A DNA stretch of 64,000 nt from Hyphomicrobiales bacterium. GTDB taxonomy: Bacteria; Pseudomonadota; Alphaproteobacteria; Rhizobiales; Aestuariivirgaceae. This document shows positions 13,772-55,086 of the stretch, in pieces; positions within the stretch are counted from its first letter, which is position 1, and each line of letters starts with the position of its first letter. Under the pieces are notes generated by a model, which was not told the DNA's origin, did not search any database, and worked only from the letters and a program-made list of their open reading frames with translations. Position numbers and translations under genes: made by a program. Where the stretch lies: the NCBI GenBank assembly GCA_046349315.1, contig JAXMCQ010000005.1, positions 161,701 through 225,700 of the forward strand. The letters are read 5' to 3'.

Positions 13772-13939
13772 AGGCGTGGTCCTGAATGAGATCGTGAAAA
13801 TTTGAATCGCCGTGATCGGACGCACAATATTCAATAGGGAAGTGTGGCCGTATTCTGTCTGACGTCGCGCCAAAATTTGACCAATTGGAAAAAACCGCAT
13901 AGGCTTCGTTCAGACAAGAAGAATAAGGGAGAGAAATTC

Positions 13940-15286
13940 ATGCCGGCAGCGGAAGGCAGGCCCGGTCCCGATATCGCTTCCGGGCGTCTGGCGGCTGACG
14001 ACTACGCCAAGAACTTCGCCGATCTGCATCCGCCGCTCGATGCGCATGAAGCGCTGGTCGAATCCGATCGCTGCTATTTCTGCTACGACGCGCCCTGCAT
14101 GAATGCCTGCCCGACCGGCATCGACATTCCGCTCTTCATCCGCGAGATCAACACCGGTAATGCGCTCGGCGCCGCCAAGACGATCTTCGATCAGAATATT
14201 CTGGGTGGGATGTGCGCCCGCGTCTGCCCGACCGAGACATTATGCGAGGAGGCTTGCGTCAGGAACGATGCCGAGGGCGAGCCCGTCAAGATCGGACTCC
14301 TTCAGCGGCATGCGACCGACAAGGCGATGGCAGCGAATGCGCAATTCTACAAGCGCGCGGCACTGACTGGAAGGCACGTCGCTGTTGTAGGCGCGGGGCC
14401 GGCGGGGCTGGCCTGCGCGCATCGGCTCGCCATGCATGGCCACGATGTCGTCGTCTTCGATGCCAAGCCGAAGGCAGGCGGTCTCAATGAATACGGCATC
14501 GCCGCCTACAAGACGGTTGCCGATTTTGCCCAGGCCGAGATCGATTACATCTTGAGTATCGGCGGCATTACCATCGAGACCGGCAAGCGGCTCGGCCGTG
14601 ATATCCAGCTTGATGATTTGCGCAAGAAATACAATGCAGTCTTCCTTGGTATCGGCTTGGCCGGCGTGAATCACCTGCATGAGTCAGGCGAAGAATCGCC
14701 GGGCGTTGAGGACGCCGTCGAATTCATCGCCGAGATCCGCCAGGCCGACGATCTGGCGCGCTTGAAGATCGGCCGCCGCGTCGCGGTGATCGGCGGCGGC
14801 ATGACGGCCATCGATGTCGCCGTGCAATCGAAGTTGCTCGGCGCCGAGGATGTCACCATTCTCTATCGGCGCGGCAAGGAAGAGATGAAAGCGAGCGAAT
14901 TTGAGCAGGACCTCGCCCAGACCAATGGCGTCACGATCAAGCATTGGGTGCGGCCGCGGAAAATCGTCGTGAAGGACGGATCGGCTGTCGGCATCGAATG
15001 CGAATATACGCGTGATGAGGACGGCCGGCTGATGGGAACCGGCGAGAAATTCGAGTTCGAGGCCGATATGGTGTTCAAGGCGATCGGCCAGAAATTAGAA
15101 TCCGGCCCCGTGCCGGGCCTCGAACTGATGGACGGCCGTTTGAAAGTTGACCATGAACGGCGCACAAGCCTTCCCGGTGTATGGGCCGGCGGCGACTGTG
15201 CACATGGCGGCCAGGACCTGACAGTTGCCGCCGTCGAGGATGGCAAGCGCGCCGCCGAATCGATTCATCGCGTGCTGTCGCGCTAA
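13940..15286 (+). CDS. preT: NAD-dependent dihydropyrimidine dehydrogenase subunit PreT (GltD-like)
   Basis: Trimmed to the ATG at 13940, which has an AAGGGAGAG SD. It has Cys clusters CYFCYDAPCMNACP and CARVCPTETLCEEAC and dinucleotide fold VVGAGPAGLACA. Confidence 0.85.
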   Translation: MPAAEGRPGPDIASGRLAADDYAKNFADLHPPLDAHEALVESDRCYFCYDAPCMNACPTGIDIPLFIREINTGNALGAAKTIFDQNILGGMCARVCPTETLCEEACVRNDAEGEPVKIGLLQRHATDKAMAANAQFYKRAALTGRHVAVVGAGPAGLACAHRLAMHGHDVVVFDAKPKAGGLNEYGIAAYKTVADFAQAEIDYILSIGGITIETGKRLGRDIQLDDLRKKYNAVFLGIGLAGVNHLHESGEESPGVEDAVEFIAEIRQADDLARLKIGRRVAVIGGGMTAIDVAVQSKLLGAEDVTILYRRGKEEMKASEFEQDLAQTNGVTIKHWVRPRKIVVKDGSAVGIECEYTRDEDGRLMGTGEKFEFEADMVFKAIGQKLESGPVPGLELMDGRLKVDHERRTSLPGVWAGGDCAHGGQDLTVAAVEDGKRAAESIHRVLSR

Positions 15287-15301
15287 TCGAGGAGTTCTCC
15301 C

Positions 15302-16609
15302 ATGGCTGATCTGCGCACCGAATTCTTAGGGATCAAATCGCCAAACCCCTTCTGGCTCGCATCCGCGCCACCGACCGACAAGGAGTATAATGTCGTTCGC
15401 GCCTTCAAGGCAGGCTGGGGCGGCGTTGTCTGGAAGACGCTCGGCGAGGACCCGGCGGTCGTCAATGTCAACGGACCGCGCTATGGCGCGATCTGGGGCG
15501 CCGACCGCCGATTGCTCGGCTTCAATAATATCGAACTGATCACTGACCGTCCGCTGCATACAAATCTCCGCGAGATCAAGCAGGTCAAGCGCGACTGGCC
15601 GAACCGCGCCGTGGTCGTGTCCCTGATGGTGCCCTGCGAGGAAAAAAGCTGGGCGAGCATCCTGCCGCTCGTCGAAGAGACCGGTGCGGACGGTGTCGAG
15701 CTCAATTTCGGCTGCCCGCATGGCATGTCGGAACGCGGCATGGGATCGGCGGTCGGCCAGGTGCCGGAATATATCGAAATGGTGGCGCGCTGGTGCAAGG
15801 CGCATACCCGCATGCCGGTGATCGTCAAGCTCACCCCCAACATCACCGACATTCGCCATCCCGCACGCGCTGCACGCAATGGCGGCGCGGATGCGGTCTC
15901 GCTCATCAACACCATCAATTCGATCGTGAGTGTCGATCTCGATACGATGTCGCCCGAGCCTTCGATCGACGGCAAGGGCACGCATGGCGGCTATTGCGGG
16001 CCGGCCGTAAAGCCCATCGCGCTCAGCATGGTGTCCGAGATCGCTCGCGACAAGGCCACGCGCGGCTTTCCGATTTCGGCGATTGGTGGCATCACCACTT
16101 GGCGCGATGCCGTGGAATTCATGACGCTTGGTGCCACGACGGTTCAAGTCTGCACCGCCGCCATGACCTATGGCTTCGCAATCGTGAAAGAACTGATCTC
16201 CGGAATGTCCAATTGGATGGACGAGAAGGGCTATCGCTCGATCGATGATTTCGTCGGCGCAGCGGTTCCCAATGTCACCGACTGGCAGTTCTTGAATCTC
16301 AATTACATTGCCAAGGCCCATATCAACCAGGACCTCTGCATCAAATGCGGGCGCTGCCACATCGTCTGCGAGGATACGTCGCACCAGGCGATCGCCGCAA
16401 AGAAGAACGGCCAGCGGCATTTCGAGGTCATCGATGCCGAATGCGTCGGCTGCAATCTCTGCGTCAGCGTCTGCCCGGTCGCCGACTGCATCACCATGGT
16501 GGAGATGACATCCGGCACCGATCCGCGCACCGGAAGGAAAATCCACCGCGACTACGCGAATTGGACGACGCACCCGAACAATCCCAACGCGGTCAAGGCG
16601 GCGGAATGA
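15302..16609 (+). CDS. preA: NAD-dependent dihydropyrimidine dehydrogenase subunit PreA
   Basis: 435 aa: a DHODH-like barrel plus C-terminal 2x[4Fe-4S] motifs CIKCGRCHIVC and CVGCNLCVSVCP. Confidence 0.88.
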   Translation: MADLRTEFLGIKSPNPFWLASAPPTDKEYNVVRAFKAGWGGVVWKTLGEDPAVVNVNGPRYGAIWGADRRLLGFNNIELITDRPLHTNLREIKQVKRDWPNRAVVVSLMVPCEEKSWASILPLVEETGADGVELNFGCPHGMSERGMGSAVGQVPEYIEMVARWCKAHTRMPVIVKLTPNITDIRHPARAARNGGADAVSLINTINSIVSVDLDTMSPEPSIDGKGTHGGYCGPAVKPIALSMVSEIARDKATRGFPISAIGGITTWRDAVEFMTLGATTVQVCTAAMTYGFAIVKELISGMSNWMDEKGYRSIDDFVGAAVPNVTDWQFLNLNYIAKAHINQDLCIKCGRCHIVCEDTSHQAIAAKKNGQRHFEVIDAECVGCNLCVSVCPVADCITMVEMTSGTDPRTGRKIHRDYANWTTHPNNPNAVKAAE

Positions 16610-16719: not shown

Positions 16720-17637
16720 TCAGCCTTTCCTCACCGCGCTGACATGGCGGGCGAAGTCGGGTGTCGCCATCAAGGCCTTGCAGCGTTCGAAGCGGTTGGT
16801 CGCATAGGCCCAAAAATCATCGACGGGATTTTTGTTGGCGTGCTGGATCAGACCCCACAGCGTCCACAACAGATCGCACATCGCCTTGTAGATGACGATG
16901 CGGCCACGCTCGGCAGGCTTTGGCTCGCCTGAGAAATAGGCGCGGATCATCTCTTCTTCCTGTGCTGTATCGAACAGGCCTTCCACCGAAAGATCGCCAA
17001 GATCCCACAATGGGTCGTTCATGCCGGAATATTCCCAGTCGACGACCCACATGCGCTCACCCGTATCGAGGAAGTTCTCGCACAGGGGATCGCAATGACA
17101 GGCGACCAACGGCAGAGGATGCGCGGCGAGTGCTGCACGCACGGACTCCGCCTCGCGCACGACATCATGATAGCCGCGCGGCAACTCGACCTCCTTGGTC
17201 GAAAGCACCTTGAGATAATCGTCGATCATCGCGAAGAGTTCGAAGCGGAAATTGAACTTCGCCGTGCTGTCGTGAAGCTGTCGGAAGGCGCGCCCGGCCC
17301 GTCCCGGGGAACCAGCGCGCGATTTGAAATTGGCGGGCGACATGGTGACCGCACCATCGATATACTTCGTCACCATGATTCCGGTCTTAGGGTCGAAATG
17401 GATGACCTCGGGACTGACACCGGCGCGCGCCGCCTCCCGCGCGGCCACGGCTTCATTGGCACGATTGATGTATTCTTCAGTGCCCTTGCCCGGGATGCGC
17501 AGGCAGAAATCATCGTCGATCCTGAAGACAAGGTTGGTGAGACCGCCGAGCCGTGCGATCTTCGCCGACGCCGCGCGACTGGCGAGCGCGGGAACTGCCG
17601 CGAGCGCCTGTGTGGCCTGGTCGGCATCCCCGGTCAT
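16720..17637 (-). CDS. Choline/ethanolamine kinase family phosphotransferase (LicA/APH-like), copy 2
   Basis: 305 aa with motifs CHCDPLCENFL and VVDWEYSGMNDPLWDLGDL. Its ATG overlaps the upstream stop (ATGA, 17634-17637). Confidence 0.85.
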   Translation of the reverse strand: MTGDADQATQALAAVPALASRAASAKIARLGGLTNLVFRIDDDFCLRIPGKGTEEYINRANEAVAAREAARAGVSPEVIHFDPKTGIMVTKYIDGAVTMSPANFKSRAGSPGRAGRAFRQLHDSTAKFNFRFELFAMIDDYLKVLSTKEVELPRGYHDVVREAESVRAALAAHPLPLVACHCDPLCENFLDTGERMWVVDWEYSGMNDPLWDLGDLSVEGLFDTAQEEEMIRAYFSGEPKPAERGRIVIYKAMCDLLWTLWGLIQHANKNPVDDFWAYATNRFERCKALMATPDFARHVSAVRKG

Positions 17638-20057
17638 GACTTCAATCGCTCCATCTTCGGATCGTAAAGCACGCGCGGACCGCGCTTTGCCTGATAGGGC
17701 GTGCCGAAGGCCTCGATCCGGAAATCGCTTTCATTCGCAATCGCGACCGGCAGATAGCCGAACGCGATGGTTTTCCCGAGCGTGTGGCCGAAATTCGTAC
17801 TCGTCACGGAGCCAACGACATCTCCCTCATGGAAGATCGCTTCTCCGCCATGTAATGGTGCAAAGCCGCCAATGGTGAAGGACACGAGCTTGCGCTTCGG
17901 GCCGTCCTGCTTGATGCGCGAGAGGGCATCGTGACCGATGAACTCACCCTTCTCCAATGCCACCGCGAAGCCAAGGCCCGCTTCATACGGGTTGTAGTCA
18001 GGCCCGATATCGCCCGACCAATAGAGATAGCCCTTCTCCATCCGGCAGGTATCAATCGCCCGGTAGCCGGCATTGGCGATGCCATGCGCCTGCCCCGCCG
18101 CCCACAAACTCTCGTAGACATGGGCGGCATAGTCCTGCCGGATATAGAGCTCATAACCGAGTTCGCCGACATAGCCGATGCGCGCTGCCGAGACGCGCGC
18201 ATTGCCGACTTCGAAACGTTTGATCTTCTGGAACGGAAAGGCCGCGTTCGAGATATCCTCGTCCGTGACGGATTGGAGGATCTCGCGCGATTTGGGCCCG
18301 CAGATATTAATCGTCGCCCAGACTTCGGTGACATCCCGCAGATTGGCCGTGCCATCCTTCGGCAGATGCCGCGTGATCCACTGGGCATCGCGCACGCCGA
18401 AACCCGATCCGGTAATGACGAAGACGAAATCGTCATCGACATTGAACACCGTGACATCGGCCTCGATGCCGCCCTTTTCATTGCAGAGCTGGGTGTAGAC
18501 GGCACGGTCGCGCTCACCCATGAGATCATTGGCAGCGATGCGCTGCATGGCGGCAAGCGCGTTCTTGCCGGAGATTTCGAGAACCGCAAACGACGTCTGG
18601 TCGATGAGCGCCGCCCGCTCGCGGATGGCGCGATGTTCCGCCGCGACGGCGTCAAACCAGTTGGGCTTGCCTTCGAAGGAGGGAACATCGCGCGGCTCGA
18701 AACCTGCCGTCGCAAACCAGTTGGGCCGCTCCCAGCCGAATTTCGATCCATAGACGGCGCCCTTATCCTTGAGGATCGCATAGAGCGGCGAACGCCTGAG
18801 GCCCCGCCCTGCATGCGATTCCTCGCCCGGCCAGTGGATCTTGTAATAGGCGCCATAGGCCTCGACGGCCCGCTCTTCGAGATAGCGGCCTTGTGCATGG
18901 AGCGCACCGAAGCGGCGCACGTCGAACGGCCACAGATCCATGCCGGCATCGCCGTGAAGGATCGTATTCGCCATGGCGAGCCCGGCTCCGCCCGATGCCG
19001 CAATGCCAGCCGTGAATCCACAGGCGACATAGAAATTGTCGAGCTCGGGTGCCAAGCCCATGATCGGCTCGCCATCGGCCGAAACTGGGATCGGCCCGTT
19101 GATGACCGTCTGGATGCCGATTTCGTTGAGCACCGGCAGCCGCTCCGTGGCAGGAAGTGCAAAGAGTTCGAGCCGCTCCATGTTCGGCTCGAACAATTCA
19201 CGGCCGAAATCGAGCGGCGGCATGCCGCGCCAGCAGCCTCTCGAACCGTCCTCCCAGCCGCCGATCGCGAAGGCACCGGTATCGGGCTTGAGATAGAAAT
19301 TCTTGTCGGGATCGCGCAGCGTCGTCAGATCGGCCGCGAGATCAAGCTTCTTCTCGGTGAGAAAATACTGGTGCTCGACAATGCCGGCGGCGAGCGGAAC
19401 GCCGGCCATGGCGCCGACGCGCTTCGCCCAAAGCCCGGCGCAATTCACGAGAATATCGCAGCCGATATTGCCGCCATTCGTTACCACCCCGACGGCGCGC
19501 CGGCCTGCAGTCGCGATCTCCTCGACGCACACACCCTCCTCGATGCGTGCACCATGCATGCGGGCTCCCTTGGCATAGGCCATGGTCAGCGAATAGGGAT
19601 CGATATAGCCGTCGCCCGGTATGAAGGCCGCGCCTTCGATCCCGTCAGTAATGATATAGGGAAAGCGCGCCTTCGCCTCAGCTGCGGTCAGCGAAAAGCA
19701 TTCGACACCGAAACTCTTGGCCTGCGTCATTGAGCGGCGGATTTCGCTCCAGCGGTCACGGCTGCCGGCAAGGCGCAACGAGCCGACCTTCTTCCAGGAA
19801 ATCGGCTGGCCGGTCTCGGCTTCGAGCCGATCGAAGACGGCGACCGAATTCTGCATGAGCCGTGTCAGGTTCTTCTTGCCGCGCAACTGCCCGACAAGAC
19901 CGGCGGCATGCCATGTGCAGCCATGGGTGAGCTGCGCCTTCTCGACGAGCAAAACGTCCTTGGCGCCGTCGCGCGCCAGATGATAGGCAAGCGACGTGCC
20001 GATCGCGCCGCCGCCGATGATGAGGATATGGACGTGGCGGTCCGCGCGGAAACTCAC
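17634..20057 (-). CDS. FAD-dependent oxidoreductase fused to GcvT-like folate-binding domain (dimethylglycine/sarcosine dehydrogenase family), copy 2
   Basis: 807 aa with FAD fold ILIIGGGAIGTSLAYHLA, motif CTWHAAGL, and a C-terminal aminomethyltransferase-like region. The GTG start overlaps the upstream stop. Confidence 0.88.
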   Translation of the reverse strand: MSFRADRHVHILIIGGGAIGTSLAYHLARDGAKDVLLVEKAQLTHGCTWHAAGLVGQLRGKKNLTRLMQNSVAVFDRLEAETGQPISWKKVGSLRLAGSRDRWSEIRRSMTQAKSFGVECFSLTAAEAKARFPYIITDGIEGAAFIPGDGYIDPYSLTMAYAKGARMHGARIEEGVCVEEIATAGRRAVGVVTNGGNIGCDILVNCAGLWAKRVGAMAGVPLAAGIVEHQYFLTEKKLDLAADLTTLRDPDKNFYLKPDTGAFAIGGWEDGSRGCWRGMPPLDFGRELFEPNMERLELFALPATERLPVLNEIGIQTVINGPIPVSADGEPIMGLAPELDNFYVACGFTAGIAASGGAGLAMANTILHGDAGMDLWPFDVRRFGALHAQGRYLEERAVEAYGAYYKIHWPGEESHAGRGLRRSPLYAILKDKGAVYGSKFGWERPNWFATAGFEPRDVPSFEGKPNWFDAVAAEHRAIRERAALIDQTSFAVLEISGKNALAAMQRIAANDLMGERDRAVYTQLCNEKGGIEADVTVFNVDDDFVFVITGSGFGVRDAQWITRHLPKDGTANLRDVTEVWATINICGPKSREILQSVTDEDISNAAFPFQKIKRFEVGNARVSAARIGYVGELGYELYIRQDYAAHVYESLWAAGQAHGIANAGYRAIDTCRMEKGYLYWSGDIGPDYNPYEAGLGFAVALEKGEFIGHDALSRIKQDGPKRKLVSFTIGGFAPLHGGEAIFHEGDVVGSVTSTNFGHTLGKTIAFGYLPVAIANESDFRIEAFGTPYQAKRGPRVLYDPKMERLKS

Positions 20058-22501
20058 GCCTTCACCCTTTCATTCTTCGGATCGTAAAGCGCCTCGAGAT
20101 GAACCGTTGCCGGCACCTTCTCCTTGGCGACGACGAGTTCATACTTGCCGGAGCGGATGTAATCCTCATTTACCCCGCCGCCATTACGCACATAGCCGAA
20201 GCCTATCGGCTTGCCGATTGTGTAGCCATAACCGCCGCTGGTGAGATAGCCGGCAAAGGCGCCGTCGCGCAGGATCGTCTCGCGACCGAGCAGAACGACA
20301 TTCGGATCGAGCGTGGTGAAGCCGACGAGTTTCTTCGGCAGGGCCGAATTGGCGATCCTCTCGCACGCCTCGCGGCCCAGGAATGATTGACCGCCTTTAA
20401 GCTTCACCGCCCAGCCGAGCCCTGCCTGGAAGGGATCGTCATTGGCGGTAATGTCGGAACTCCAGGCGCGATAGCCCTTCTCGAGACGCAAGGCTTCGAG
20501 CGCGCGATAGCCCGTGGGCCGCGAGCCAAGCGGCTCTCCCACCATCATCAGGGCATCGAAGATCTCGCCGGCCGCACCGATCGGCATGTGCAATTCCCAA
20601 CCAAGCTCGCCCACATAGGTGACACGCAAGGCCCTCACCTTGTGCCCAGCAATGTCGATGATGCGCGCATGGCCGAACGGAAAACCGGCATTGGAGACAT
20701 CGCTGCTGGTCACGCGCGCCAGGATTTCTCGCGACCTGGGGCCCATCAGCGAGAGCGTACCCCAGGCTTCGGTGACATCCTCGATGTGGGCATCGAGGCC
20801 GGGTTTGATGTGATCGCGAATCCAGCCGAAATCATGGGTGCGGAATCCGGTGCCGGTGACGACGTAGAAATGATCGTCCGCCAATCGTGTGACGGTGAGA
20901 TCGCTTTCGATCCCGCCGCGCGAATTGAGCAATTGCGTGTAGATGACGCGGCCCGGCGCCTTGGCGATGTCATTCGCACAAATCCAGGAAAGCGCCGCTG
21001 CGGCATCCCGGCCCTTCACTTCGAACTTGGCGAAGGAGGATTGATCGAAGACGCCAGCCGCTTCGCGCACCGCGCGATGCTCGGCACCCACCGCATCGAA
21101 CCAGTTCTGACGCCCCATGACATAGATGTCCTTGGGCTCCACACCCTTGGGCGCGAACCAGTTGGGGCGCTCCCAGCCGAGCTTCGAGCCGAAGCAGGCA
21201 TTGCGCGCTTTCAACCGCTCATAGAGCGGCGACACGATGCGTGGCCGCCCGCTCCCATACTCCTCATGCGGAAAGCCAATCGTGTAGTGCTTGGCGCAAG
21301 CCTCAAGCGTGCGGGCGCAAACCCAATCACGATCCTTGTGGAGATCGGAGAAGCGCCGGATATCGACCACCCAGAGATCCATCGGCGCTTCGCCGGTCTT
21401 CGCCCATTGTGCGAGAACCCAGCCCGCGCCGCCGGCGCTTGCGATGCCGAAGGCATTGAAGCCGGCGCCGACATAGAAATTCTTCAATTCCGGCGCGGCA
21501 CCAAGAATGAAGTTGCCATCCGGCGTGAAGCTTTCCGGCCCGTGGATCATCTTCTTGATGCCGGTCTGGCCGAGTGCCGGCACGCGGGCCAGTGCTTGGC
21601 CCATATGCTGCTCGAAATGGTCCCAGTCATCCTCGAACAGCTGAAACTCGAAATTGTTCGGCACATCGCCAAGCGTCCAGGCGACGGGATCGGGCTCGTA
21701 GCCGCCAAAGACGAGCCCGCCGACCTCTTCCTTGAAATAGGTGCGCCGGTCGGGATCGCGGATCGTCGCCACGTCGGTGGCAAGGCCATCGACTTTCTCG
21801 GTGATCACATATTGGTGCTTCACCGGCTGCAAGGGAACCGAAACGCCGGCCAAGGCGCCGATCTGCCTCGCCCACTGGCCGCCGCAATTGACGACCGTTT
21901 CGCAGGTGATCCGCCCCTGGTTGGTGACGACCGCGACGACGCGGCCTTCCTTGATCTCGAAGCCTTCGACGCGGACTCCCTCGATGAGCCGTGCGCCATG
22001 CATGCGCGCGCCCTTGGCCAATGACTGGGTAATGTCCGATGGGCTCGCCTGCCCGTCGGTCGGAAGGAAGGTCGAGCCGACGAGGTCGCTCGTATCGAGC
22101 AGGGGCCAAAGCTTCTTCGTTTCGTCCGGCGACAGCAAATGCATGTCCATGCCGAAGCTCTGCGCCGTTGTCGCCAGGCGCTTGAACTCCGTCCAGCGAT
22201 CCTCGTTGCAGGCGAGACGCAGGCAGCCGGTCATCTTCCAGCCGGTCTCGAGCCCCGTTTCCTTGTCCAATCGCTTATAGAGATCGACCGAATATTTGAG
22301 GACCTGGGTAATCGAAGCGGAAGACCGCAACTGGCCGACAAGACCTGCCGCATGCCAGGTCGAGCCCGATGTCAGCTTGTTCTGTTCGAGGAGGACGACA
22401 TCGGCCTTATGATCGCGGGCCAGATGATAAGCGGTCGAGCAGCCGATGATGCCGCCGCCGATCACTACGATCTCGGCGCGATCCGGAATTCCCTGTGTCA
22501 T
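20054..22501 (-). CDS. FAD-dependent oxidoreductase fused to GcvT-like folate-binding domain (dimethylglycine/sarcosine dehydrogenase family), copy 1
   Basis: 815 aa with VVIGGGIIGCSTAYHLA and STWHAAGL. It is a clear paralog of 17634-20057. Its ATG overlaps the upstream stop (22498-22501). Confidence 0.88.
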   Translation of the reverse strand: MTQGIPDRAEIVVIGGGIIGCSTAYHLARDHKADVVLLEQNKLTSGSTWHAAGLVGQLRSSASITQVLKYSVDLYKRLDKETGLETGWKMTGCLRLACNEDRWTEFKRLATTAQSFGMDMHLLSPDETKKLWPLLDTSDLVGSTFLPTDGQASPSDITQSLAKGARMHGARLIEGVRVEGFEIKEGRVVAVVTNQGRITCETVVNCGGQWARQIGALAGVSVPLQPVKHQYVITEKVDGLATDVATIRDPDRRTYFKEEVGGLVFGGYEPDPVAWTLGDVPNNFEFQLFEDDWDHFEQHMGQALARVPALGQTGIKKMIHGPESFTPDGNFILGAAPELKNFYVGAGFNAFGIASAGGAGWVLAQWAKTGEAPMDLWVVDIRRFSDLHKDRDWVCARTLEACAKHYTIGFPHEEYGSGRPRIVSPLYERLKARNACFGSKLGWERPNWFAPKGVEPKDIYVMGRQNWFDAVGAEHRAVREAAGVFDQSSFAKFEVKGRDAAAALSWICANDIAKAPGRVIYTQLLNSRGGIESDLTVTRLADDHFYVVTGTGFRTHDFGWIRDHIKPGLDAHIEDVTEAWGTLSLMGPRSREILARVTSSDVSNAGFPFGHARIIDIAGHKVRALRVTYVGELGWELHMPIGAAGEIFDALMMVGEPLGSRPTGYRALEALRLEKGYRAWSSDITANDDPFQAGLGWAVKLKGGQSFLGREACERIANSALPKKLVGFTTLDPNVVLLGRETILRDGAFAGYLTSGGYGYTIGKPIGFGYVRNGGGVNEDYIRSGKYELVVAKEKVPATVHLEALYDPKNERVKA

Positions 22502-23385
22502 AGCTTCCCATATTTGAATTCATATCCCGCCAGCATGTTCTCAAACCGGTCGCGATACTCTTCCGCATAGGCGACGTAGTCGACGCCGGGGGCATTGAGA
22601 TAGAGTTCCGAAATCATGCCCCACATCGATTCGCGTAAAGCCGACGCCGTTTTCATGGCATCGAAGCTGCGCCAGAGGGACTCGTCGGCCCTCTTGCCGA
22701 AATAGGTCTCGAGCAATACCTGCTCTTCCGTTCTCCCGAAGGAATTATTCGCAGCAATATTGGCAAGGTCGAACATCGCCGTGCCGAAGGCGCCATATTC
22801 CCAATCGATGAGCCACAAGCGCTTGCCGTCATCCATGAAATTGGTCGGCAACAGATCGTGATGACCGAAGACGATCGGAAGCGGCACTTGCGCGGCTTCG
22901 AGCTTCTCGCAGATTTCAAGCCAGCGCGGCAGATCGGGAACATGCCGATGATTGGCAATCTTCAAAGTATTGGCATAGTCGCGCAGCACGTGGAATACCC
23001 AGAAAATCGATCCAGGGCCCGTCATCCGCTTGCCGAGTTCGCGATGGCAGCGCTTGACGATCTCGACACAGCGCACTGAATTGGCGCGCACGTCGGTCTC
23101 GGTATAGGTGCGCGCCTTGATGTGGCGAACCACCATGATGCCCGGTTCGCTATAGATGAGCTCCGGCGAGAGCCCCGCCTCGAAGGCGGCGCGCGTCACA
23201 TGAAGTTCGCGCTCGCGGAAGACGTGATGGGCGGGATAGTCCTGGCCGACGCGCGCCACATAGGTGCCGGTATCGTCCCTGACGGTGAAGCTCGCATTGC
23301 TCACCCCACCGGTCAGCGGCTTGATGTCGATGGCGCCCTTCCACAACGAAAGGTCGCGCACGCGCTGTTCGGCGGTCTTGCTCAT
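22498..23385 (-). CDS. Choline/ethanolamine kinase family phosphotransferase (LicA/APH-like), copy 1
   Basis: ORF 22498..23547 trimmed to the ATG at 23383-23385, 8 nt after the permease stop. Motifs are FGHHDLLPTNFM and LIDWEYGAFG..MFDLANI. Confidence 0.82.
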   Translation of the reverse strand: MSKTAEQRVRDLSLWKGAIDIKPLTGGVSNASFTVRDDTGTYVARVGQDYPAHHVFRERELHVTRAAFEAGLSPELIYSEPGIMVVRHIKARTYTETDVRANSVRCVEIVKRCHRELGKRMTGPGSIFWVFHVLRDYANTLKIANHRHVPDLPRWLEICEKLEAAQVPLPIVFGHHDLLPTNFMDDGKRLWLIDWEYGAFGTAMFDLANIAANNSFGRTEEQVLLETYFGKRADESLWRSFDAMKTASALRESMWGMISELYLNAPGVDYVAYAEEYRDRFENMLAGYEFKYGKL

Positions 23386-23392
23386 GCTCGGC

Positions 23393-25375
23393 CTATGCGA
23401 TTCCCATTTTGCGCTTGCGCTTGGCGACCCAGGCGGTGATGAGCCGGTCGGCGATGATGCCGATGAAGGCGATCGCCAGACCCGCCACCAAGCCTCTGCC
23501 GGTATCGGCCTTGGACAAGGCCTTGAAAACTTCCTGGCCGAGATCACGCGTGCCGATCATGGCGCAGATGATGATCATGCTGAGGGCGAGCAGTATCGTC
23601 TGGTTGATGCCGAGCATGATTTCCGGAATGGCGACAGGCAATTGCACCCGCCAGAAGAGCTGGCGCTTGGTGCAGCCCGAAACGATCCCCGCTTCCATCA
23701 ATTCCTGCGGCACCTGGCGGAGGCCGTGATTGGTGTAGCGGATGGCGGGAACGATGGCGAAAGCGACGGTAGCGATCAAGGCCGTAAAATCACCGATGCG
23801 GAACAGCATCACCGCCGGAATGATGAAACAGAACATCGGGATCGTCTGTAGCGTATCGATGACCGGGGTCACGATCTTCTCGAAGCGGTCATGCCGCGAG
23901 GCCAGCACGCCGATCGGGATGCCAAGTGCCGCAGCGATGAAAGAGGCGGCGCCGCAAAGATAGAGCGTCGCCATGGTCTGGACCCAAAGCCCCGTCACCG
24001 CGCAGAAGCTTGCCAGCAATGCCACGACGAGGGCGAGCCGCCAGGTGCCCAGCCGATATCCGGCATAGGCGAGCGTGAGCATGACGCCGAGCCACGGCAG
24101 ACTTTCAAACAATGCCCGCAATGGATTGAGCACATAGATGAGGACCGCGACGCGCACGGCTTCGATTGCATCGAAGAAATGCAAGTTGACCCAATCGACA
24201 GCATCCTTCCACATCGGTCCCGTCGTGAAGGTGATTGCTTTGGGCACGGAAGCGAAGGCCGGGATCGCGATGCTGACCAGCGTTGTGACGACGAGAATGC
24301 CGAGCGCGATTGCCAAATTCGGATGACGTGTAAGGAATGAGGCCTTCACCTCCTTCTTGTCTTCATAACGCTGGACAGCGGCCGCCTGGCTGAGCCGATC
24401 GAGTACGATGGCCAGCACCACGATGCACAGTCCCGCCTCCATGGCGGGGCCGACTTTCAATGCACGAAGCGCCAGAAGGACGTCGTAGCCGAGACCCCCC
24501 GCTCCGATCATCGAGGAGATGATCACCATGTTGAGCGCCAGCATGATCACCTGGTTCACGCCAAGCATGAGCGAAGGCTTTGCCGCCGGCACCAGCACGC
24601 GCCACATCTTTTGCCGCCGGGTGCAGCCAGCCATGTCGGCGAAATCCTTTATCTCGGAAGGTATCTTTTCGAGACCGAGGATCGTCGCGCGCACCATCGG
24701 CGGTGTCGCGAAAAGGCCTGTCGCGAGCAACGCCGAGACCGGATTATTGCCGAACAGAAGCAACATCGGGATGAGATAGGCGAAGGTCGGAATCGTCTGC
24801 ATGAGATCGAGCGCCGGCGTGATGATGAGCTGGTTCGCGCGCGGCGATCGATAGCCCCAGATGCCGATCAGGAGGCCGGTGACGACGCAGATCGGGACGC
24901 AGACGACTATCAGCGCCAAGGTGAGCATGGCGCTGTCCCATTGCCGGAACAGGGCGATATAGAGAAAACCTATTCCGGCAAGGAGCGCCAACCGGATCCC
25001 ACCCAATGCATGGCCAAGCAAAGCCATCGCTGCGCAAATGCCGATCCAGGAAAGGCGCGGCAGTATCACTGACCAGTCGCCGATGACGAACTTGTAGCTC
25101 TTCGCTAACAGCGCAAAGGAAACCTGCAACGGCACATTGATGATCGCGACGAGGCTGCGCGTGAACCACGTGAAGTTCACCTTCACCCAGTTCATGAAAG
25201 CGCTGATCCAATCCGCGAAGGGAAAGACCAGATGGTCAGGGTAGTCGGAGCCGCCGGGGATTATATAAGCCAGCACGAAGGCAGCGACGATGACGCTAAG
25301 CGTCATTGCGATGCGACTCGCTGGGTGTGCGGGTGGCAGCGCGTGGCGCGCATCGCTGAGGACGGCCTCGCTCAC
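23393..25375 (-). CDS. Quaternary-amine (glycine betaine/choline type) ABC transporter permease, fused two-module ProW-like
   Basis: 660 aa and highly hydrophobic, with two tandem permease modules. The GTG start overlaps the ATPase stop (GTGA at 25372-25375). Confidence 0.85.
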   Translation of the reverse strand: MSEAVLSDARHALPPAHPASRIAMTLSVIVAAFVLAYIIPGGSDYPDHLVFPFADWISAFMNWVKVNFTWFTRSLVAIINVPLQVSFALLAKSYKFVIGDWSVILPRLSWIGICAAMALLGHALGGIRLALLAGIGFLYIALFRQWDSAMLTLALIVVCVPICVVTGLLIGIWGYRSPRANQLIITPALDLMQTIPTFAYLIPMLLLFGNNPVSALLATGLFATPPMVRATILGLEKIPSEIKDFADMAGCTRRQKMWRVLVPAAKPSLMLGVNQVIMLALNMVIISSMIGAGGLGYDVLLALRALKVGPAMEAGLCIVVLAIVLDRLSQAAAVQRYEDKKEVKASFLTRHPNLAIALGILVVTTLVSIAIPAFASVPKAITFTTGPMWKDAVDWVNLHFFDAIEAVRVAVLIYVLNPLRALFESLPWLGVMLTLAYAGYRLGTWRLALVVALLASFCAVTGLWVQTMATLYLCGAASFIAAALGIPIGVLASRHDRFEKIVTPVIDTLQTIPMFCFIIPAVMLFRIGDFTALIATVAFAIVPAIRYTNHGLRQVPQELMEAGIVSGCTKRQLFWRVQLPVAIPEIMLGINQTILLALSMIIICAMIGTRDLGQEVFKALSKADTGRGLVAGLAIAFIGIIADRLITAWVAKRKRKMGIA

Positions 25376-26435
25376 GGGCGAAGACCTGCCTGATCGCGTC
25401 CGGCCAGAAGATCGATCACGGCCTTGGGCGAAATCTCGCCAACCGTCTTGCCTGCGTCATCGACGACGGCGAAGGGAAGATCAGAGGCCACGATCTCAGG
25501 CGCAAAGCTTGCGACCTTGGCGACGGCCGTGACCGTCCCGCCATGCCTCGCTTCAGCCGCACTGGGCCGCATAAGGCTTTGCGCCGAGAGCACCTTGGCG
25601 CGATTAACATCACGGGTGAACTCGGCGACATAATCGGTCGCAGGATGCGTGACGAGTTCTTCCGGCGTGCCGATCTGGATGATCTCACCATCCTTCATAA
25701 TAGCGATGCGATCGGCCAACCGGATCGCTTCGTCGAAGTCATGCGTGATGAAGATGATCGTCTTCTTGAGCACGCCCTGCAGCCGCATCAATTCGGCCTG
25801 CATCTCGCGCCGGATCAAAGGATCGAGCGCGGAGAAAGGCTCGTCGAGAAACCAGATCTCCGGCGCCACCGCCAGTGAACGCGCAATGCCGACGCGCTGC
25901 TGCTGGCCCCGGATAATTCCCGCGGATAGTGGCTTTCGCGCCCGGTAAGGCCGACAAGGTCGATCATCTCGCGCGCGCTTCAATCGCTTCAGCTTGTCGA
26001 CGCCCTGGACGGCCAACGGAAAGGCGACATTCTCGATGACGGTCAGATGCGGCAGCAGCGCGAAATGCTGGAACACCATGCCCATCTTGTGACGGCGGAT
26101 TTCGATGAGTTGCGCTTCGCTCGCCTTCAAAAGATCGCGGCCGTCGAAAACGACATCGCCAAGGTCGGCTCGATGAGTCGCGACAGGCAGCGCACGAGCG
26201 TCGACTTGCCGGACCCCGAAAGTCCCATGACAATGAATATCTCGCCCTCGTTCACATCGAGGCTGGCGCGCCGAACCGCACCGATCAGCTTGGCTTGCGC
26301 AAGATCGCTCGAACCGGCTTCGCCGCGACGTTCGCGCATGAACGCATCGGCGCCGGGACCGAACACCTTCCAGAGATTTCGGCAGGAGAGCTTAGGCCTT
26401 GAACTATCGGCGGCGCGCGGCGTCGCACGAGTCAT
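25372..26435 (-). pseudogene. ProV/OpuAA-like ABC ATPase disrupted by three indels
   Basis: The N-terminal piece (ATG 26435, Walker A GLSGSGKSTLVRCL) stops at 26127-26129. Reading GDVVFDGRDLLKASEAQL requires a 1-nt shift at ~26161. A second and third shift (CG repeat 25969-25978, C4 run 25907-25910) garble MIDLVGLTGRESHYPRELSGG into DDRPCRPYRARKPLSAGIIRG, which destroys the LSGGQ signature. Confidence 0.8.
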
Positions 26436-26511
26436 GCGAAGTGTCCTTGAGCAGAATGGTCGTCGCGTGGAAAGCAAAAGGCCGGGCGCCAATGACGCCC
26501 GGCCCTGATGA

Positions 26512-27474
26512 TCACTGCGCCCAGGCCTTCCACTTGGCCTCGTTGTCCGTCACCCACTTAGCGGCAACGTCGTCGATCGTCTTGCCTTCGAGATCGACTT
26601 CAGCCGAGAGCTTGTTCAGCTCGTTGACGTCGATTTGATAGGCCTGCGCAACCTTGTGGGCGAGCGGCCACTTGTCCTTCATGCCGGCCCAGGAGTACTT
26701 CCAGATCTCGCCATGCGGCTTGCCGCAATCATGGGCCTTGTCCGGATTGATGCCCCACTTCGGATCGGTATAGCATTCGGGCGTATATTCGGGGAATTGC
26801 ACCCATTCGCCTTCATACTTCGAAGGCGCCCAATGCGGCGAGTAGATCCACAGCATGATCGGCGCCTTGCGCTGATAGGCCGAATCGAGTTCGGCGAACA
26901 TCGCCGCGTCGGTTCCGGCATGGATGACGGTGAAGGGAAGACCCAAGGCCTCGACGCGTTCATCATCGAAGCCTTCCCAAGTCACCGGACCGCCAACATA
27001 GCGGCCCTTGGGCGCCGTTTCGGCGGTCGAGAAGGCTTCGGCGCATTTCGGATCCTTTAGCGCTTCCCAATTGGGCAGTCCCGGGCACTTCTCTTTCATG
27101 TAGAGCGGATACCACCACTCTTCTTTTGCCTTCGGCCCGAGCATGCCGAGCTTTTCCGTTTGCCCGGTCGCGTCCGAGGCCTTCATCGCCTCGCCGGCCG
27201 TCGTATCCCAGAATTCGAGGCCGACGGTGAGGTCGCCATTGGTGAGGCCGGTGGTCAGGCTCGAAAGATAATCGGCCGTCGGATACTCGACCGTGTAGCC
27301 GAGCTTCTCGAGGATTCCGCCAAGGATCTTGGCGTTGATATTGACGCTGGTCCAGTCGAACTGGGCGATTTTGATCGGATCGTTCGATTCGACCGCCTGT
27401 GCTGCGGGTGCAAAGCACAACGCAGCCGAGACGGCCAAGGCGCTCAACGCGCCGGCAAGGCGTAGCTTCATCAT
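26512..27474 (-). CDS. Glycine betaine/choline-type ABC substrate-binding protein (ProX/OpuAC-like)
   Basis: ORF 26512..27852 trimmed to the ATGATG at 27469-27474, which has a GGAGGAAGG SD. Signal peptide is MMKLRLAGALSALAVSAALCFAPAAQA. The mature protein is Trp-rich. Confidence 0.85.
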   Translation of the reverse strand: MMKLRLAGALSALAVSAALCFAPAAQAVESNDPIKIAQFDWTSVNINAKILGGILEKLGYTVEYPTADYLSSLTTGLTNGDLTVGLEFWDTTAGEAMKASDATGQTEKLGMLGPKAKEEWWYPLYMKEKCPGLPNWEALKDPKCAEAFSTAETAPKGRYVGGPVTWEGFDDERVEALGLPFTVIHAGTDAAMFAELDSAYQRKAPIMLWIYSPHWAPSKYEGEWVQFPEYTPECYTDPKWGINPDKAHDCGKPHGEIWKYSWAGMKDKWPLAHKVAQAYQIDVNELNKLSAEVDLEGKTIDDVAAKWVTDNEAKWKAWAQ

Positions 27475-27634
27475 AGGGGTACCTTCCTCCTGCAGCTGCA
27501 CAGTTCTCCGATGCCCGACACGGCAAGGGCGCGCAGTCGCAAACAGTCTCCGGCGCAATCGCAACTCTGTCAATCGGGCCGCAGGGGTAAACTGTGGGTT
27601 TTTGTGAGTTTGGCTGCAAAATTCTTGATTGCAC

Positions 27635-27670
27635 GCCCGATTTGTGTGCGAATGCTCGCAAAAATCGGGC
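27635..27670. promoter_or_regulatory. Inverted repeat gcccgattt-N18-aaatcgggc in the DeoR / ABC divergent promoter region
   Basis: Perfect 9-bp arms at 27635-27643 and 27662-27670, immediately upstream of the DeoR start. Confidence 0.4.
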
Positions 27671-27678
27671 AAAACCAC

Positions 27679-28473
27679 ATGGGCCTCCAAACTGGACAGC
27701 TCTCCACGCGCCAATCGGACCTGCTGCGCGCGGTACGCGAACGCGGCACTGCCGCACTCGTCGATCTGGCGCGCGAATTCAACGTCTCGCAGGAAACGAT
27801 CAGGCGGGATGTGAAGCGACTGGCGGCTGAGGGCCAGGTGCTGAGGCGCCACGGCAATGTCGCCGTACCCTATAGCGTCGGCGAGGCGCCCTTCGAGCGG
27901 CGCTTGCGCGAGAATGCTGCCGCCAAACGGGCTATTGCGCGGCGCGCCGCCGAAATGGTCGAGGACGGCGACAGCATAATCCTCGACACCGGCACCACCA
28001 CCAGCATCTTCGCGCGCGAATTGCTCAAGCGCGTCAATCTCACCGTCATCACCAACTCATCCGATATCGCCCGCACGCTCGCCACCGTGAACGGCAATCG
28101 CGTCTACATGGCGGGCGGCGAACTCAACGGCGACAATGGCGCGGCCTTCGGTCCTTCGACCATCGATTTCGTCGCGCAGTTTCGCGCCAAGCACGCCATG
28201 GTGACGATCGCCGGACTGACTGCCGAATTGGGCCCGATGGATTCGCATCTCGCCGAAGCCGAATTCGCGCGCATGGTCCTTTCGCGGGGCGACAACCGCG
28301 TGATCCTCACCGATCAATCTAAGTTCGATCGCGTGGCACTCATCAAGATTTGCGGATTTGAGGACTTTAATCGATTGGTGACTGACGCGAGCCCGCCGCC
28401 CTCCCTCGCCGCGCGATTGACGCAGGCCGGTATCACCGTCGAGATCGCCGATCAGGGCTTGGGTCGAATATAG
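27679..28473 (+). CDS. DeoR family transcriptional regulator
   Basis: ORF 27511..28473 trimmed to the ATG at 27679 (alternative start at 27652). It has an N-terminal HTH (LVDLAREFNVSQETIRRDVKRL) and a DeoR C-terminal sensor-like domain. Confidence 0.85.
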   Translation: MGLQTGQLSTRQSDLLRAVRERGTAALVDLAREFNVSQETIRRDVKRLAAEGQVLRRHGNVAVPYSVGEAPFERRLRENAAAKRAIARRAAEMVEDGDSIILDTGTTTSIFARELLKRVNLTVITNSSDIARTLATVNGNRVYMAGGELNGDNGAAFGPSTIDFVAQFRAKHAMVTIAGLTAELGPMDSHLAEAEFARMVLSRGDNRVILTDQSKFDRVALIKICGFEDFNRLVTDASPPPSLAARLTQAGITVEIADQGLGRI

Positions 28474-34816: not shown

Positions 34817-35704
34817 ATGCACCTTTCGACCCACAATTGGATGCGCGCCGAACCGCTGGAAACGACGCTCGCCCGTATCAGCAAGCTTGGTTATGAGAGC
34901 ATCGAGATCAGCGGCGAGCCGACTCAATATGAAACCAAGGCAACGCGCAAGGCCCTGAAGGATTACAAAATCCGCTGCTGGGGCTCGGTGACGCTGACTT
35001 TGGCCGATCGCAACCTTGCCGCGAAGAATCCCAAGCAGCGCGCCGCCACCGTCGACTACATGAAGAGCGTAATCACCATGGTCTCGGAGCTCGAAGGCGA
35101 GATCATCACGCTGGTTCCGGCGACCGTCGGCAAGATTACGCCCGATTCTTCGCCCGAGCAGGAATGGCAGTGGCTGATCGAGGGCGTGAAGGAGTGCTAT
35201 GAGCACGGCAAGAAGAAGGGCGTGCGCATCGCCATCGAGCCGCTCAACCGTTTCGAGACCTATATTCTGAACCGCGCCGACCAGGCCTTGGCCCTGGCCG
35301 AAGCAGTCGGACCCGATTGCGGCGTCTGCCTCGATGCCTTCCACCTCAATATCGAAGACGAGGACATGTACGCCTCGATCCGCAAGGCCGGGAAGCGGCT
35401 CTACGACTTCCATGTTGCCGACAACAACCGCATGGCGCCCGGCCAAGGCGCGCTCGATTGGAAGAAGATCGTCAAGACGCTGAAAGATACAGGCTATGAC
35501 GGCGCCCTGACCGTCGAATTCGTGGCGCCCGTCGACCGCACGCCGGCGACCAAGTATCCCAATGCGGTTGAGAAGAACCCGGTCAACATCTCGCGCGAGC
35601 AGCTCAAATTTATCCAGGACCACGGCTCGAGCCTGTTGAGCGAGGAGTTCTACTCCATGCTGGTCAAGAAATCGGCTGAGACCATCCTGCCGCTGATTAA
35701 GTAA
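34817..35704 (+). CDS. Sugar phosphate isomerase/epimerase (xylose isomerase-like TIM barrel)
   Basis: 295 aa; ATG preceded by GGGAGGAA. The motifs IEPLNRFE and DAFHLNIED are typical of this family. Confidence 0.85.
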   Translation: MHLSTHNWMRAEPLETTLARISKLGYESIEISGEPTQYETKATRKALKDYKIRCWGSVTLTLADRNLAAKNPKQRAATVDYMKSVITMVSELEGEIITLVPATVGKITPDSSPEQEWQWLIEGVKECYEHGKKKGVRIAIEPLNRFETYILNRADQALALAEAVGPDCGVCLDAFHLNIEDEDMYASIRKAGKRLYDFHVADNNRMAPGQGALDWKKIVKTLKDTGYDGALTVEFVAPVDRTPATKYPNAVEKNPVNISREQLKFIQDHGSSLLSEEFYSMLVKKSAETILPLIK

Positions 35705-35727
35705 GCGCTGAAAAGGCGCAAATCATC

Positions 35728-41692: not shown

Positions 41693-41696
41693 GGCT

Positions 41697-42641: not shown

Positions 42642-42650
42642 GAAAGTGCC

Positions 42651-54401: not shown

Positions 54402-55024
54402 GCCGCATCATTGATATTTCGCAACCGCTCGATCCCGGCATGGCGGGATTCCCGGGCGATACCCCGTACCAGGAAGCGCAGACCTTTCGCATCGGGCCGA
54501 ACTGTCCGGTCAATGTCGCGCAAATATCATTGTCGGTGCATTGCGGCACCCATGCCGATGCGCCCTTGCATTATGCCGCCGATGGCAAGCCGATCGGCGC
54601 ACTCGATCTCGAACCCTTCATCGGCCCTTGCCGGGTGATCGATGCACGTGGCATGGGCCCGCTTTGTGAACCGCAGCAGATCGAGGCGTATCTCAAGGAT
54701 GCACCATCGCGCATTCTCCTGCGCCTGACCGACGGATTCGATCCGCATGTCTGGCCGACAGGCTTTCGCGCGCTGTCCGCCGCAACTATCGAGTTGCTGA
54801 CCTCGCGCAGCGTGCGTCTCGTCGGCATCGATACACCCTCCGTCGATCCTGAAACCTCGAAAGACCTGCCGGCCCATAACGCGGCTTTGCGCACCGACAT
54901 GCGCATCCTCGAAAATCTTGTCCTAACGCATGTCGCTCAAGGCGACTATGAACTGATCGCGCTCCCCTTGCGCTTCTCGAACCTCGACGCCTCGCCGGTC
55001 CGCGCCGTGCTCCGCACAGTGTAA
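54398..55024 (+). CDS. kynB: Kynurenine formamidase (cyclase family)
   Basis: 208 aa. The GTG overlaps the kynU stop. It has the metal-binding motif HCGTHADAPLHY. Confidence 0.85.
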   Translation: MSRIIDISQPLDPGMAGFPGDTPYQEAQTFRIGPNCPVNVAQISLSVHCGTHADAPLHYAADGKPIGALDLEPFIGPCRVIDARGMGPLCEPQQIEAYLKDAPSRILLRLTDGFDPHVWPTGFRALSAATIELLTSRSVRLVGIDTPSVDPETSKDLPAHNAALRTDMRILENLVLTHVAQGDYELIALPLRFSNLDASPVRAVLRTV

Positions 55025-55026
55025 TT

Positions 55027-55073: not shown

Positions 55074-55086
55074 AGGGTGCGGGGGA

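Follow-up and report, generated by a model that had tools for sequence, protein, structure and literature searches.

A candidate operon for kinase-primed, flavoprotein-dependent N-demethylation of methylated ethanolamines in a Hyphomicrobiales bacterium

Introduction

Demethylation of choline in Eubacterium limosum begins with a kinase: the LicA-like MthK must phosphorylate choline before MthB, MthC and MthA move one methyl group to tetrahydrofolate (THF) (PMC12155760). The demethylase is an anaerobic MttB-family/corrinoid methyltransferase that works on phosphocholine, a quaternary amine; its product is dimethylaminoethanol phosphate and the methyl leaves as methyl-THF. MthK recycles the phosphate from the product to fresh choline, and the authors see in the phosphate an acidic handle for demethylases whose family arose on amines with a carboxyl group (PMC12155760). 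Here we describe an operon within a 64,000-nucleotide stretch of DNA from a Hyphomicrobiales bacterium (assembly GCA_046349315.1, contig JAXMCQ010000005.1, positions 161,701 to 225,700; hereafter the window), in which two genes of the choline kinase family, kinases A and B, are joined to two genes for flavoproteins of the dimethylglycine dehydrogenase (DMGDH) type, DH1 and DH2, together with genes for an ABC importer and a divergent DeoR-family regulator. The original prediction on this DNA could name no characterised pathway that pairs an amino-alcohol kinase with folate-linked N-demethylation; the E. limosum system does so, with a demethylase of another family (PMC12155760).

Ethanolamine itself is degraded in Phaeobacter sp. 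MED193 by a gamma-glutamylglycine amidohydrolase, an ethanolamine gamma-glutamylase and two dehydrogenases (PMC10132767). For the aerobic catabolism of its N-methylated forms, N,N-dimethylethanolamine (DMEA) and N-methylethanolamine (MMEA), whose sources are the methylated phospholipids of bacteria and algae, the anaerobic demethylation of choline, and industrial use, no assigned genes were found in the literature that we searched. We propose, as an even call made from sequence, that the operon would be catabolic, serving the import of DMEA and MMEA, their O-phosphorylation and the stepwise THF-linked demethylation of the phospho-esters, followed by ethanolamine catabolism.

Results

Conservation of the kinase and dehydrogenase genes

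Relatives of the locus were collected by a scan of species-representative genomes, which gave at least 573 confirmed loci; 80 of those were examined together with plasmid and assembly loci, and related loci were mapped by tblastn (n = 92), with 78 having enough downstream sequence and 83 enough upstream room to serve as denominators. In 63 of the 78 loci DH1 is the next gene after kinase A, the pairing spans Hyphomicrobiales, Rhodobacterales and Rhodospirillales, and this arrangement exceeds chance. The DeoR gene is present in 49 of 83 loci and the fused-permease ABC system in 22 of 92, with DH2 and kinase B found in 18 and 22 loci of the same 92. The kinases and the dehydrogenases each split into two clean clades: DH1 orthologues share 58-92% identity and DH2 orthologues 49-76%, the two dehydrogenase clades are 42-47% identical to each other (DH1 and DH2 about 44%), and the kinase A and kinase B types share 24-33%.

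The separate DH2 clade travels with kinase B, and in Cereibacter the two form a separate unit with its own DeoR gene; we therefore distinguish a core module of kinase A and DH1 from an accessory module of DH2 and kinase B. The four enzymes had at first been taken as a single kinase-DH-DH-kinase block. Two modules of kinase plus dehydrogenase do exist, but the block is not indivisible, DH2 and kinase B being present in about one fifth of the loci. The synteny expected for the block likewise holds for the kinase A-DH1 adjacency (63 of 78) but not for the overlap between DH1 and DH2, which in the relative L003 is replaced by a 58-nt spacer.

The kinase family is large. At E ≤ 1e-10 the database contains 3842 relatives of kinase A, of which many are about 70% identical and most are from environmental Alphaproteobacteria, and the Salipiger kinase as query returned at least 7910 relatives at E ≤ 1e-40.

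Between DH1 and kinase B, on the opposite strand, a class I S-adenosylmethionine (SAM) methyltransferase gene of 208-213 aa was seen in Shinella (L001, 10927-11568), a Paracoccaceae metagenome-assembled genome (L004, 13326-13952) and Albidovulum (L039, about 11955-12575), and DH2 is missing from all three loci. The methyltransferase beside kinase B in Shinella and Paracoccaceae matched no specific family.

Kinases A and B

Both kinases match the Pfam family Choline_kinase (PF01633), with 72.1 bits for kinase B and 55.1 for kinase A against a cut-off of 29, and for both this family outscores APH (64 and 52 bits, respectively). They carry the Brenner motif, HxDxxxxN, and the choline-kinase motif, (I/L/V)xxID(F/W/Y)E(Y/F) (definitions from PMC4364537), as HHDLLPTN and LIDWEY in kinase A and as HCDPLCEN and VVDWEY in kinase B, in agreement with the motifs predicted for the pair. 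Among solved structures, kinase B is related to PDB 3DXQ, a structural-genomics protein of Mesorhizobium loti (E = 3.4e-157), and to LicA (4R77; E = 3.2e-37). The choline pocket of LicA is formed by T29, D176, Y197, E213, W251, W254 and Y268 (PMC4364537), and all seven residues are retained in the alignment with kinase B. Kinase A has an Asn at the position of E213 and keeps one of the two Trp residues, which is true of every kinase A orthologue examined.

The best NCBIfam models for the two kinases were GntI, a guanitoxin N-oxide kinase (148 and 127 bits against a cut-off of 357), and ThiK (63 and 61 against 299), and that search reported no model for aminoglycoside or homoserine kinases. We rejected membership of GntI, the score being far under the cut-off, and take the likeness as that of a shared dimethylamino-binding kinase fold. 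The Pfam and NCBIfam results and the solved relatives agree in grouping both enzymes with choline kinases, as had been anticipated, and not with antibiotic or homoserine kinases.

Dehydrogenases DH1 and DH2

The four Pfam domains DAO, FAO_M, GCV_T and GCV_T_C are all over cut-off in DH1 (251, 59, 281 and 64 bits) and in DH2 (211, 65, 251 and 67 bits), so that, with the kinase families above, every Pfam match expected for the four enzymes was obtained. The best solved relative of DH1 is rat DMGDH (4P9S; E = 1.8e-157). Motif, alignment and Pfam agree on what the original prediction had stressed in both dehydrogenases, a (S/C)TWHAAGL motif with the His that binds flavin adenine dinucleotide (FAD) covalently, and a GcvT-like folate domain: the motif reads GSTWHAAGL in DH1 and GCTWHAAGL in DH2, and H50 (the covalent-FAD position), H229 and Y255 of DH1 align with H48, H225 and Y259 of dimethylglycine oxidase (DMGO). 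The covalent-FAD His and the His/Tyr dyad are kept in 51-52 of 52 DH1 and in 15 of 15 DH2 orthologues, and an Asp matching the folate-site D552 of DMGO is present in both enzymes (GGIESD in DH1, GGIEAD in DH2). From these features we can safely infer that DH1 and DH2 perform folate-coupled oxidative N-demethylation.

The substrate sites were compared as alignment contrasts only. In this comparison DH1 and DH2 carry Ser or Ala in place of a His common to DMGDH and DMGO (rat 377, DMGO 364), and the DH1 clade has its own basic residues, K228, R252 and R253, lying beside catalytic residues in the alignment. DH2 has E228, K252, K61 and K62 in the corresponding region. As for dimethylglycine or sarcosine as the substrate of DH1 or DH2, the gene context would argue against either.

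Linked genes in relatives

In Nitratireductor sp. OM-1, a DeoR gene stands divergent to a kinase-DH-EutH series, with the ethanolamine permease EutH at 663 bits against an NCBIfam cut-off of 575. In Salipiger abyssi, the series transporter-kinase-DH1 continues with the beta and alpha subunits of electron transfer flavoprotein (ETF), FolD and PurU, then with an N-formylglutamate-amidohydrolase-like (FGase) gene, a GS-like gene, an aldehyde dehydrogenase and an Fe-alcohol dehydrogenase, and after these come GlyA, SdaA (serine ammonia-lyase) and a HAD hydrolase. In a Cereibacter sphaeroides assembly, kinase and DH1 are directly followed by FGase, GS, aldehyde dehydrogenase, Fe-alcohol dehydrogenase and HAD genes. 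The four families that follow kinase-DH1 in both Salipiger and Cereibacter are those of the MED193 gamma-glutamyl ethanolamine set (PMC10132767), and in Shinella GS-like, RpiR and amidohydrolase genes lie beside the DeoR gene. With ethanolamine genes as neighbours, free ethanolamine appears to be the end product of the pathway.

Phosphatase genes are linked as well. In Salipiger and Cereibacter, the next gene downstream of DeoR is one of the inositol-monophosphatase family, with a 4-nt overlap between the two in Salipiger; in Ruegeria such a gene follows DH1. The Ruegeria and Salipiger proteins best match histidinol-phosphatase (HisN; 247 and 234 bits, under the cut-off of 275), while the Cereibacter gene was not scored against this model. 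Histidinol-phosphatase hydrolyses an amino-alcohol phosphate ester. Kinase and phosphatase would, as judged from these gene families, bracket the dehydrogenase step alone.

The position taken by the HisN-like phosphatase in Rhodobacterales is occupied in about 40 Aestuariivirga-type loci (L009-L069; e.g. L011, 5363-9828) by CoxM-CoxS-CoxL molybdenum hydroxylase genes, which follow DeoR on the same strand; CoxMSL genes are absent from the 64-kb window.

Genes of the kynureninase-like and Hyu families also directly adjoin kinase A and DH1 in loci of the Aestuariivirga type. In L093 and L094, HyuA-HyuB-SDR borders on DeoR, and the families recur in Rhodospirillales. In the window they occupy 53163-61813 (kynureninase-like genes at 53163-54398 and 60533-61813, HyuB at 56633-58324, HyuA at 58428-60530), 30 kb from the operon, a proximity that is probably backbone synteny, and we set them aside as pathway members on that ground. 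DUF1615, Kbl/Tdh and GltB-like genes, absent from the window, were set aside as backbone synteny in the same way.

The ABC importer

The substrate-binding protein (SBP) of the operon matches OpuAC (173 bits, Pfam), and its nearest solved relative is TmoX (4XZ6; E = 1.3e-65, about 38% identity). TmoX binds trimethylamine N-oxide (TMAO) in a pocket of W55, W102, F106, E131, W177, F220 and W222 (PMC8918994). The window SBP has W55, W102, A106, E131, W177, W220 and Y222 and does not pass as a TmoX pocket; the same pattern, A or G at 106, F220 to W and W222 to Y with W55, W102, E131 and W177 retained, is found in 12 of 12 kinase-linked SBPs (the window and 11 relatives). The replacement of F106 by A or G would make room for a larger substituent. 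By these residues the kinase-linked SBPs are a distinct specificity class, with a predicted cation-pi cage, a hydrogen-bonding Glu and extra room.

Salipiger abyssi provides a within-genome control. Its plasmid pPABY1 carries another TmoX-like ABC system 15 kb from the kinase cluster (L091, 15582-20001), with a gene of the aminomethyltransferase family (Tdm-like) behind it, and the SBP linked to that gene retains F220 and W222 and lacks the kinase-linked signature. No Tdm-like gene was found in the window operon among the open reading frames (ORFs) or by Pfam and NCBIfam.

The permease is above the NCBIfam choline ABC permease model TIGR03416 (421 bits against a cut-off of 363), whereas the SBP is below both ChoX, TIGR03414 (24.6 against 379), and ProX (48 against 215), and the ATPase gene is split by frameshifts; the system as a whole therefore falls outside the three-component ChoXWV/ProU type. 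All three importer genes that had been placed ahead of the enzymes are indeed there, but the ATPase gene is not intact, three frame-breaking deletions having been overlooked. In tblastn with the Shinella orthologue, the ATPase changes reading frame three times, its pieces alternating between two frames, and comparison with the intact 354-aa gene of L003, a near-identical metagenome contig whose kinase A is 98% identical to that of the window, shows that 1, 2 and 1 nt have been deleted near 26162, 25971 and 25909; the start codon, ATG at 26435, is common to both. No deletion lies inside a long homopolymer, and for this reason a genuine disruption of the gene is more likely than read error. Uptake via this transporter may therefore be lost in this sequence.

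Between the SBP and ATPase genes, a hairpin with a 13-bp stem and 10 G-C pairs is followed by a T-rich tail, and L003 has this hairpin too. Its probable role is that of an attenuator within the operon or of an RNA stabiliser, which would raise SBP expression relative to the membrane parts.

The DeoR regulator and the intergenic region

The regulator scores 43.7 bits with HTH_DeoR and 156.1 bits with DeoRC in Pfam, the architecture of the DeoR/GlpR family, and lies below every cut-off of the NCBIfam equivalogs. Regulators of the DeoR family typically sense phosphorylated intermediates. The region between the regulator and the operon (27475-27678) holds a TTGACA -35 box at 27573-27568 on the minus strand, and two CACA boxes at 27592-27598 and 27602-27608; AATCGGGC/GCCCGATT occurs there three times. 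In the DeoR-operon intergenic regions of 48 loci, TTCGGTCAA-like and CCACA(A/G) boxes stand just upstream of a TTGACA hexamer, and CCACAAA/TTTGTGG occurs at 2.76 per kb against 0.137 per kb elsewhere in those loci, an enrichment of about 20-fold; the window has near-variants of CCACAAA at 27592-27608, not the exact heptamer. From this recurrence, the CCACAAA-type boxes are a candidate operator. When the locus was scanned with a simple sigma-70 promoter model, the number of sites did not exceed that in shuffled sequence.

Layout of the locus

The minus strand from 16720 to 27474 is counted in our analysis as eight co-directional genes, with the regulator gene divergent on the plus strand; the ORFs and Pfam bear out the proposed order of SBP, ATPase, permease, kinase, DH, DH and kinase (Table 1). 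All operon genes other than the ATPase gene are full length in the window. Kinase A starts at the ATG at 23385, 7 nt past the permease stop codon, and not at the GTG at 23547 given by the ORF lister.

Table 1. Features of the operon and its regulatory region, with coordinates in the window.
Feature	Coordinates	Strand	Description
Kinase B	16720-17637	-	LicA-like choline/ethanolamine-family kinase, 305 aa
DH2	17634-20057	-	DMGDH-like flavoprotein with folate domain, 807 aa, GTG start
DH1	20054-22501	-	DMGDH-like flavoprotein with folate domain, 815 aa
Kinase A	22498-23385	-	choline/ethanolamine-family kinase, 295 aa
Permease	23393-25375	-	fused double ProW-type ABC permease, 660 aa, two BPD_transp_1 stretches
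ATPase gene	25372-26435	-	ProV-like, disrupted by three frameshifting deletions
Hairpin	26478-26506	-	G+C-rich, between SBP and ATPase genes
SBP	26512-27474	-	periplasmic TmoX-related binding protein, 320 aa, signal peptide ending AQA
Divergent regulatory region	27475-27678		-35 box, CACA boxes, repeats
DeoR/GlpR-family regulator	27679-28473	+	HTH_DeoR and DeoRC; start codon at 27652 or 27679

The three 4-nt start/stop overlaps noted earlier among the enzyme genes are present, as ATGA at 22498-22501, GTGA at 20054-20057 and ATGA at 17634-17637. They suggest translational coupling; the fixed stoichiometry that had also been read into them is not implied.

Outside the operon, a PreT/PreA-like dihydropyrimidine dehydrogenase pair (13844-16609) converges on kinase B, with the same neighbours in L003, and is probably unrelated to it. 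Long ORFs at 35650-36882, 40561-43166 and 61732-63036 have no Pfam match and are likely shadow ORFs or degraded sequence. An exact look-up of the DH1 sequence in the assembly collection returned no record.

Discussion

Proposed pathway

Gene content, domains, catalytic residues, the conserved pairing and the linked genes in relatives were observed, and from them we infer which substrate is used, that the kinase acts first, the dehydrogenase next and the phosphatase last, how the two modules share the work and what DeoR senses. In the proposed pathway, the TmoX-related ABC importer would take up DMEA and/or MMEA, and a choline-kinase-family enzyme would phosphorylate the hydroxyl of the amino alcohol. 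The DMGDH-type flavoproteins would then oxidise the N-methyl groups of the phospho-ester singly, giving methylene-THF, with the electrons probably passing to ETF. The resulting phosphoethanolamine would be dephosphorylated, in some relatives by the HisN-like phosphatase, while elsewhere the kinase may pass the phosphate to the next substrate molecule, and ethanolamine would be converted to glycine. The DeoR repressor probably senses a phospho-intermediate.

Since kinase B has the complete choline-type pocket, we place it with DH2 at the dimethyl stage, the more choline-like of the two, where this pair likely acts, and kinase A with DH1 would serve the monomethyl stage. Organisms that have the core module only might use MMEA alone, or their DH1 might accept both methylation states. 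To our knowledge, DMGDH-type flavoenzymes need an amine with a free lone pair and do not oxidise quaternary nitrogen; quaternary amines are demethylated by Rieske oxygenases or by methyltransferases. Phosphocholine, its nitrogen being quaternary, is excluded on this ground as a substrate of the dehydrogenases, and entry at the dimethyl or monomethyl stage is more likely. The stepwise demethylation of a phosphorylated methylated amino alcohol that was first suggested for this operon is thereby kept in part: EutH, the gamma-glutamyl set and the HisN-like phosphatases speak for an ethanolamine-series substrate and for phospho-intermediates, and the entry through phosphocholine falls away.

By analogy with MthK, the two kinases may recycle phosphate from product to substrate, and we speculate that such recycling could be the reason why most loci, the window included, have no phosphatase. 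We also propose, tentatively and at a little under an even chance, that this would be a widespread aerobic "phosphate-handle" pathway of Alphaproteobacteria, in which N-methylated ethanolamines are phosphorylated to allow their demethylation, as phospho-esters, by DMGDH-type flavoenzymes, the first flavoprotein phospho-N-methylethanolamine dehydrogenases. Such a pathway would run backwards the phosphoethanolamine-methylation series of plants and Plasmodium, and would be the missing aerobic sink for the DMEA and MMEA that methylated phospholipids and anaerobic choline demethylation release.

Several observations weigh against the catabolic pathway as drawn. The 64-kb window holds no ethanolamine-catabolic or phosphatase genes, and its flanks no ETF or C1-folate genes; five genomes supply the most informative contexts, and three of these are Rhodobacterales whose kinase is only 43-45% identical to kinase A; and in 15 of the 78 loci the kinase A homologue has no adjacent DH1. 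The model explains neither the SAM methyltransferase gene that three loci have beside kinase B nor the CoxMSL genes behind DeoR in about 40. Parsimony is the sole ground for the order of the steps, phosphorylation followed by dephosphorylation costs ATP, and with its ATPase gene disrupted the locus may be in decay in this strain.

Alternative explanations

The same substrates could be handled in the opposite order, an explanation that we regard as unlikely: free amino alcohols would be demethylated, and the kinases would then act on ethanolamine or would do no more than make a phosphorylated inducer for DeoR, with the phosphatase resetting the signal. A kinase A with no acidic rim residue and with one Trp could suit a less methylated amine, and the phosphatase is missing from most loci, just as DH1 is from beside kinase A in the 15 loci mentioned. 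However, the linked gamma-glutamyl pathway uses free ethanolamine (PMC10132767), so that a late kinase would divert its product, and the tight coupling of kinase A to DH1 in 63 loci suits a metabolic over a signalling role. In addition, DMGDH-family substrates are generally known to carry an anionic group, which free amino alcohols do not have (the same argument is made in PMC12155760).

It is about equally improbable, in our estimate, that the same enzyme logic serves another N-methylated hydroxy compound, such as N-methyl-aminopropanol, N-methylserine, N-methylhomoserine or a fragment of a betaine-lipid headgroup. The substrate was inferred from neighbouring genes alone and many loci have no ethanolamine genes, while a zwitterion would be tolerated by kinase A with its asparagine rim. 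EutH and the gamma-glutamyl set are nevertheless specific to ethanolamine, and the aromatic cage of the SBP pocket is small, of a size to hold TMAO or choline. Kbl and Tdh, which lead from threonine to glycine and lie near several Aestuariivirga-type loci, would fit such a compound, but they are 5-9 kb off, occur in one lineage only and look like backbone synteny.

Still less probable is a glycine-betaine branch, with DH1 as dimethylglycine dehydrogenase, DH2 as sarcosine dehydrogenase, import of choline or betaine and kinases that make phosphocholine for other ends: the nearest solved relatives of DH1 (mammalian DMGDH and bacterial DMGO), catalytic residues identical to theirs, a permease that passes the choline model and the complete choline pocket of kinase B would suit it, but the loci examined have no betaine-demethylating, BetA/BetB or sarcosine-oxidase genes and are linked to ethanolamine genes instead, the SBP fails the ChoX and ProX models, the His shared by DMGDH and DMGO is Ser or Ala here while DH1 gains three basic residues, and the coupling of kinase to dehydrogenase across three orders would be left with no reason.

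Significance

A flavoprotein route combining a choline kinase with DMGDH-like enzymes for methylated ethanolamines was not found in a full-text literature search that left most subscription journals uncovered. We give an even chance to the view that this operon type, uncharacterised and widespread, is a flavoprotein form of kinase-primed, folate-linked N-demethylation of choline-series amino alcohols. If so, it would extend to flavoenzymes the recently discovered acidic-handle principle, by which amino alcohols are phosphorylated for demethylases, and would supply a function for PDB 3DXQ and for many genes annotated as "FAD-dependent oxidoreductase" or "phosphotransferase". The kinase family is thousands strong in soil, freshwater and marine metagenomes, so that this route might form a substantial connection, so far unannotated, that joins lipid headgroups with one-carbon metabolism and nitrogen cycling. 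Culturable carriers of the cluster exist in Cereibacter sphaeroides, Salipiger abyssi, Shinella and Ruegeria.

Comparison with known systems

The importer is closest to TmoXWV of Ruegeria pomeroyi and SAR11, which provides the closest solved relative of the SBP and has the same operon layout, including the fused double permease; it differs in having about 38% SBP identity, altered residues 106, 220 and 222 and no adjoining tdm, and Salipiger carries both systems side by side. The kinases share the Brenner and choline-kinase motifs with LicA of Streptococcus pneumoniae and with 3DXQ, and kinase B has the full choline pocket. LicA feeds phosphocholine into cell-surface decoration, whereas here there is no licC or licD and the pocket of kinase A is altered.

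DH1 and DH2 resemble the DMGDH and sarcosine dehydrogenase of mammalian mitochondria and the DMGO of Arthrobacter in their four-domain architecture, covalent-FAD His, His/Tyr dyad and folate Asp, and the ETF genes that follow DH1 in Salipiger are a further point of likeness. Unlike DMGDH and DMGO, to which the similarity is distant, they stand in a context of kinase, DeoR and ethanolamine genes instead of betaine catabolism. The MED193 gamma-glutamyl pathway, whose genes are absent from the window, differs in starting from TRAP-imported ethanolamine, with neither kinase nor demethylase (PMC10132767).

With the E. limosum Mth system the operon would share, as proposed here from the genes, the priming of an amino alcohol by a choline-kinase-type enzyme and a methyl carbon that ends on THF. 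No genes for an MttB-family protein, a corrinoid protein or a corrinoid:THF methyltransferase were found in the window operon by ORF list and Pfam, and in contrast to Mth, the enzymes here are aerobic FAD enzymes of the DMGDH family, which would act on tertiary and secondary amines only, yield methylene-THF and apparently proceed down to ethanolamine. The operon would be, by analogy, an aerobic, flavin-dependent counterpart of Mth at the next methylation levels, its demethylases sharing no homology with those of Mth, and so a parallel to that system rather than a member of it.

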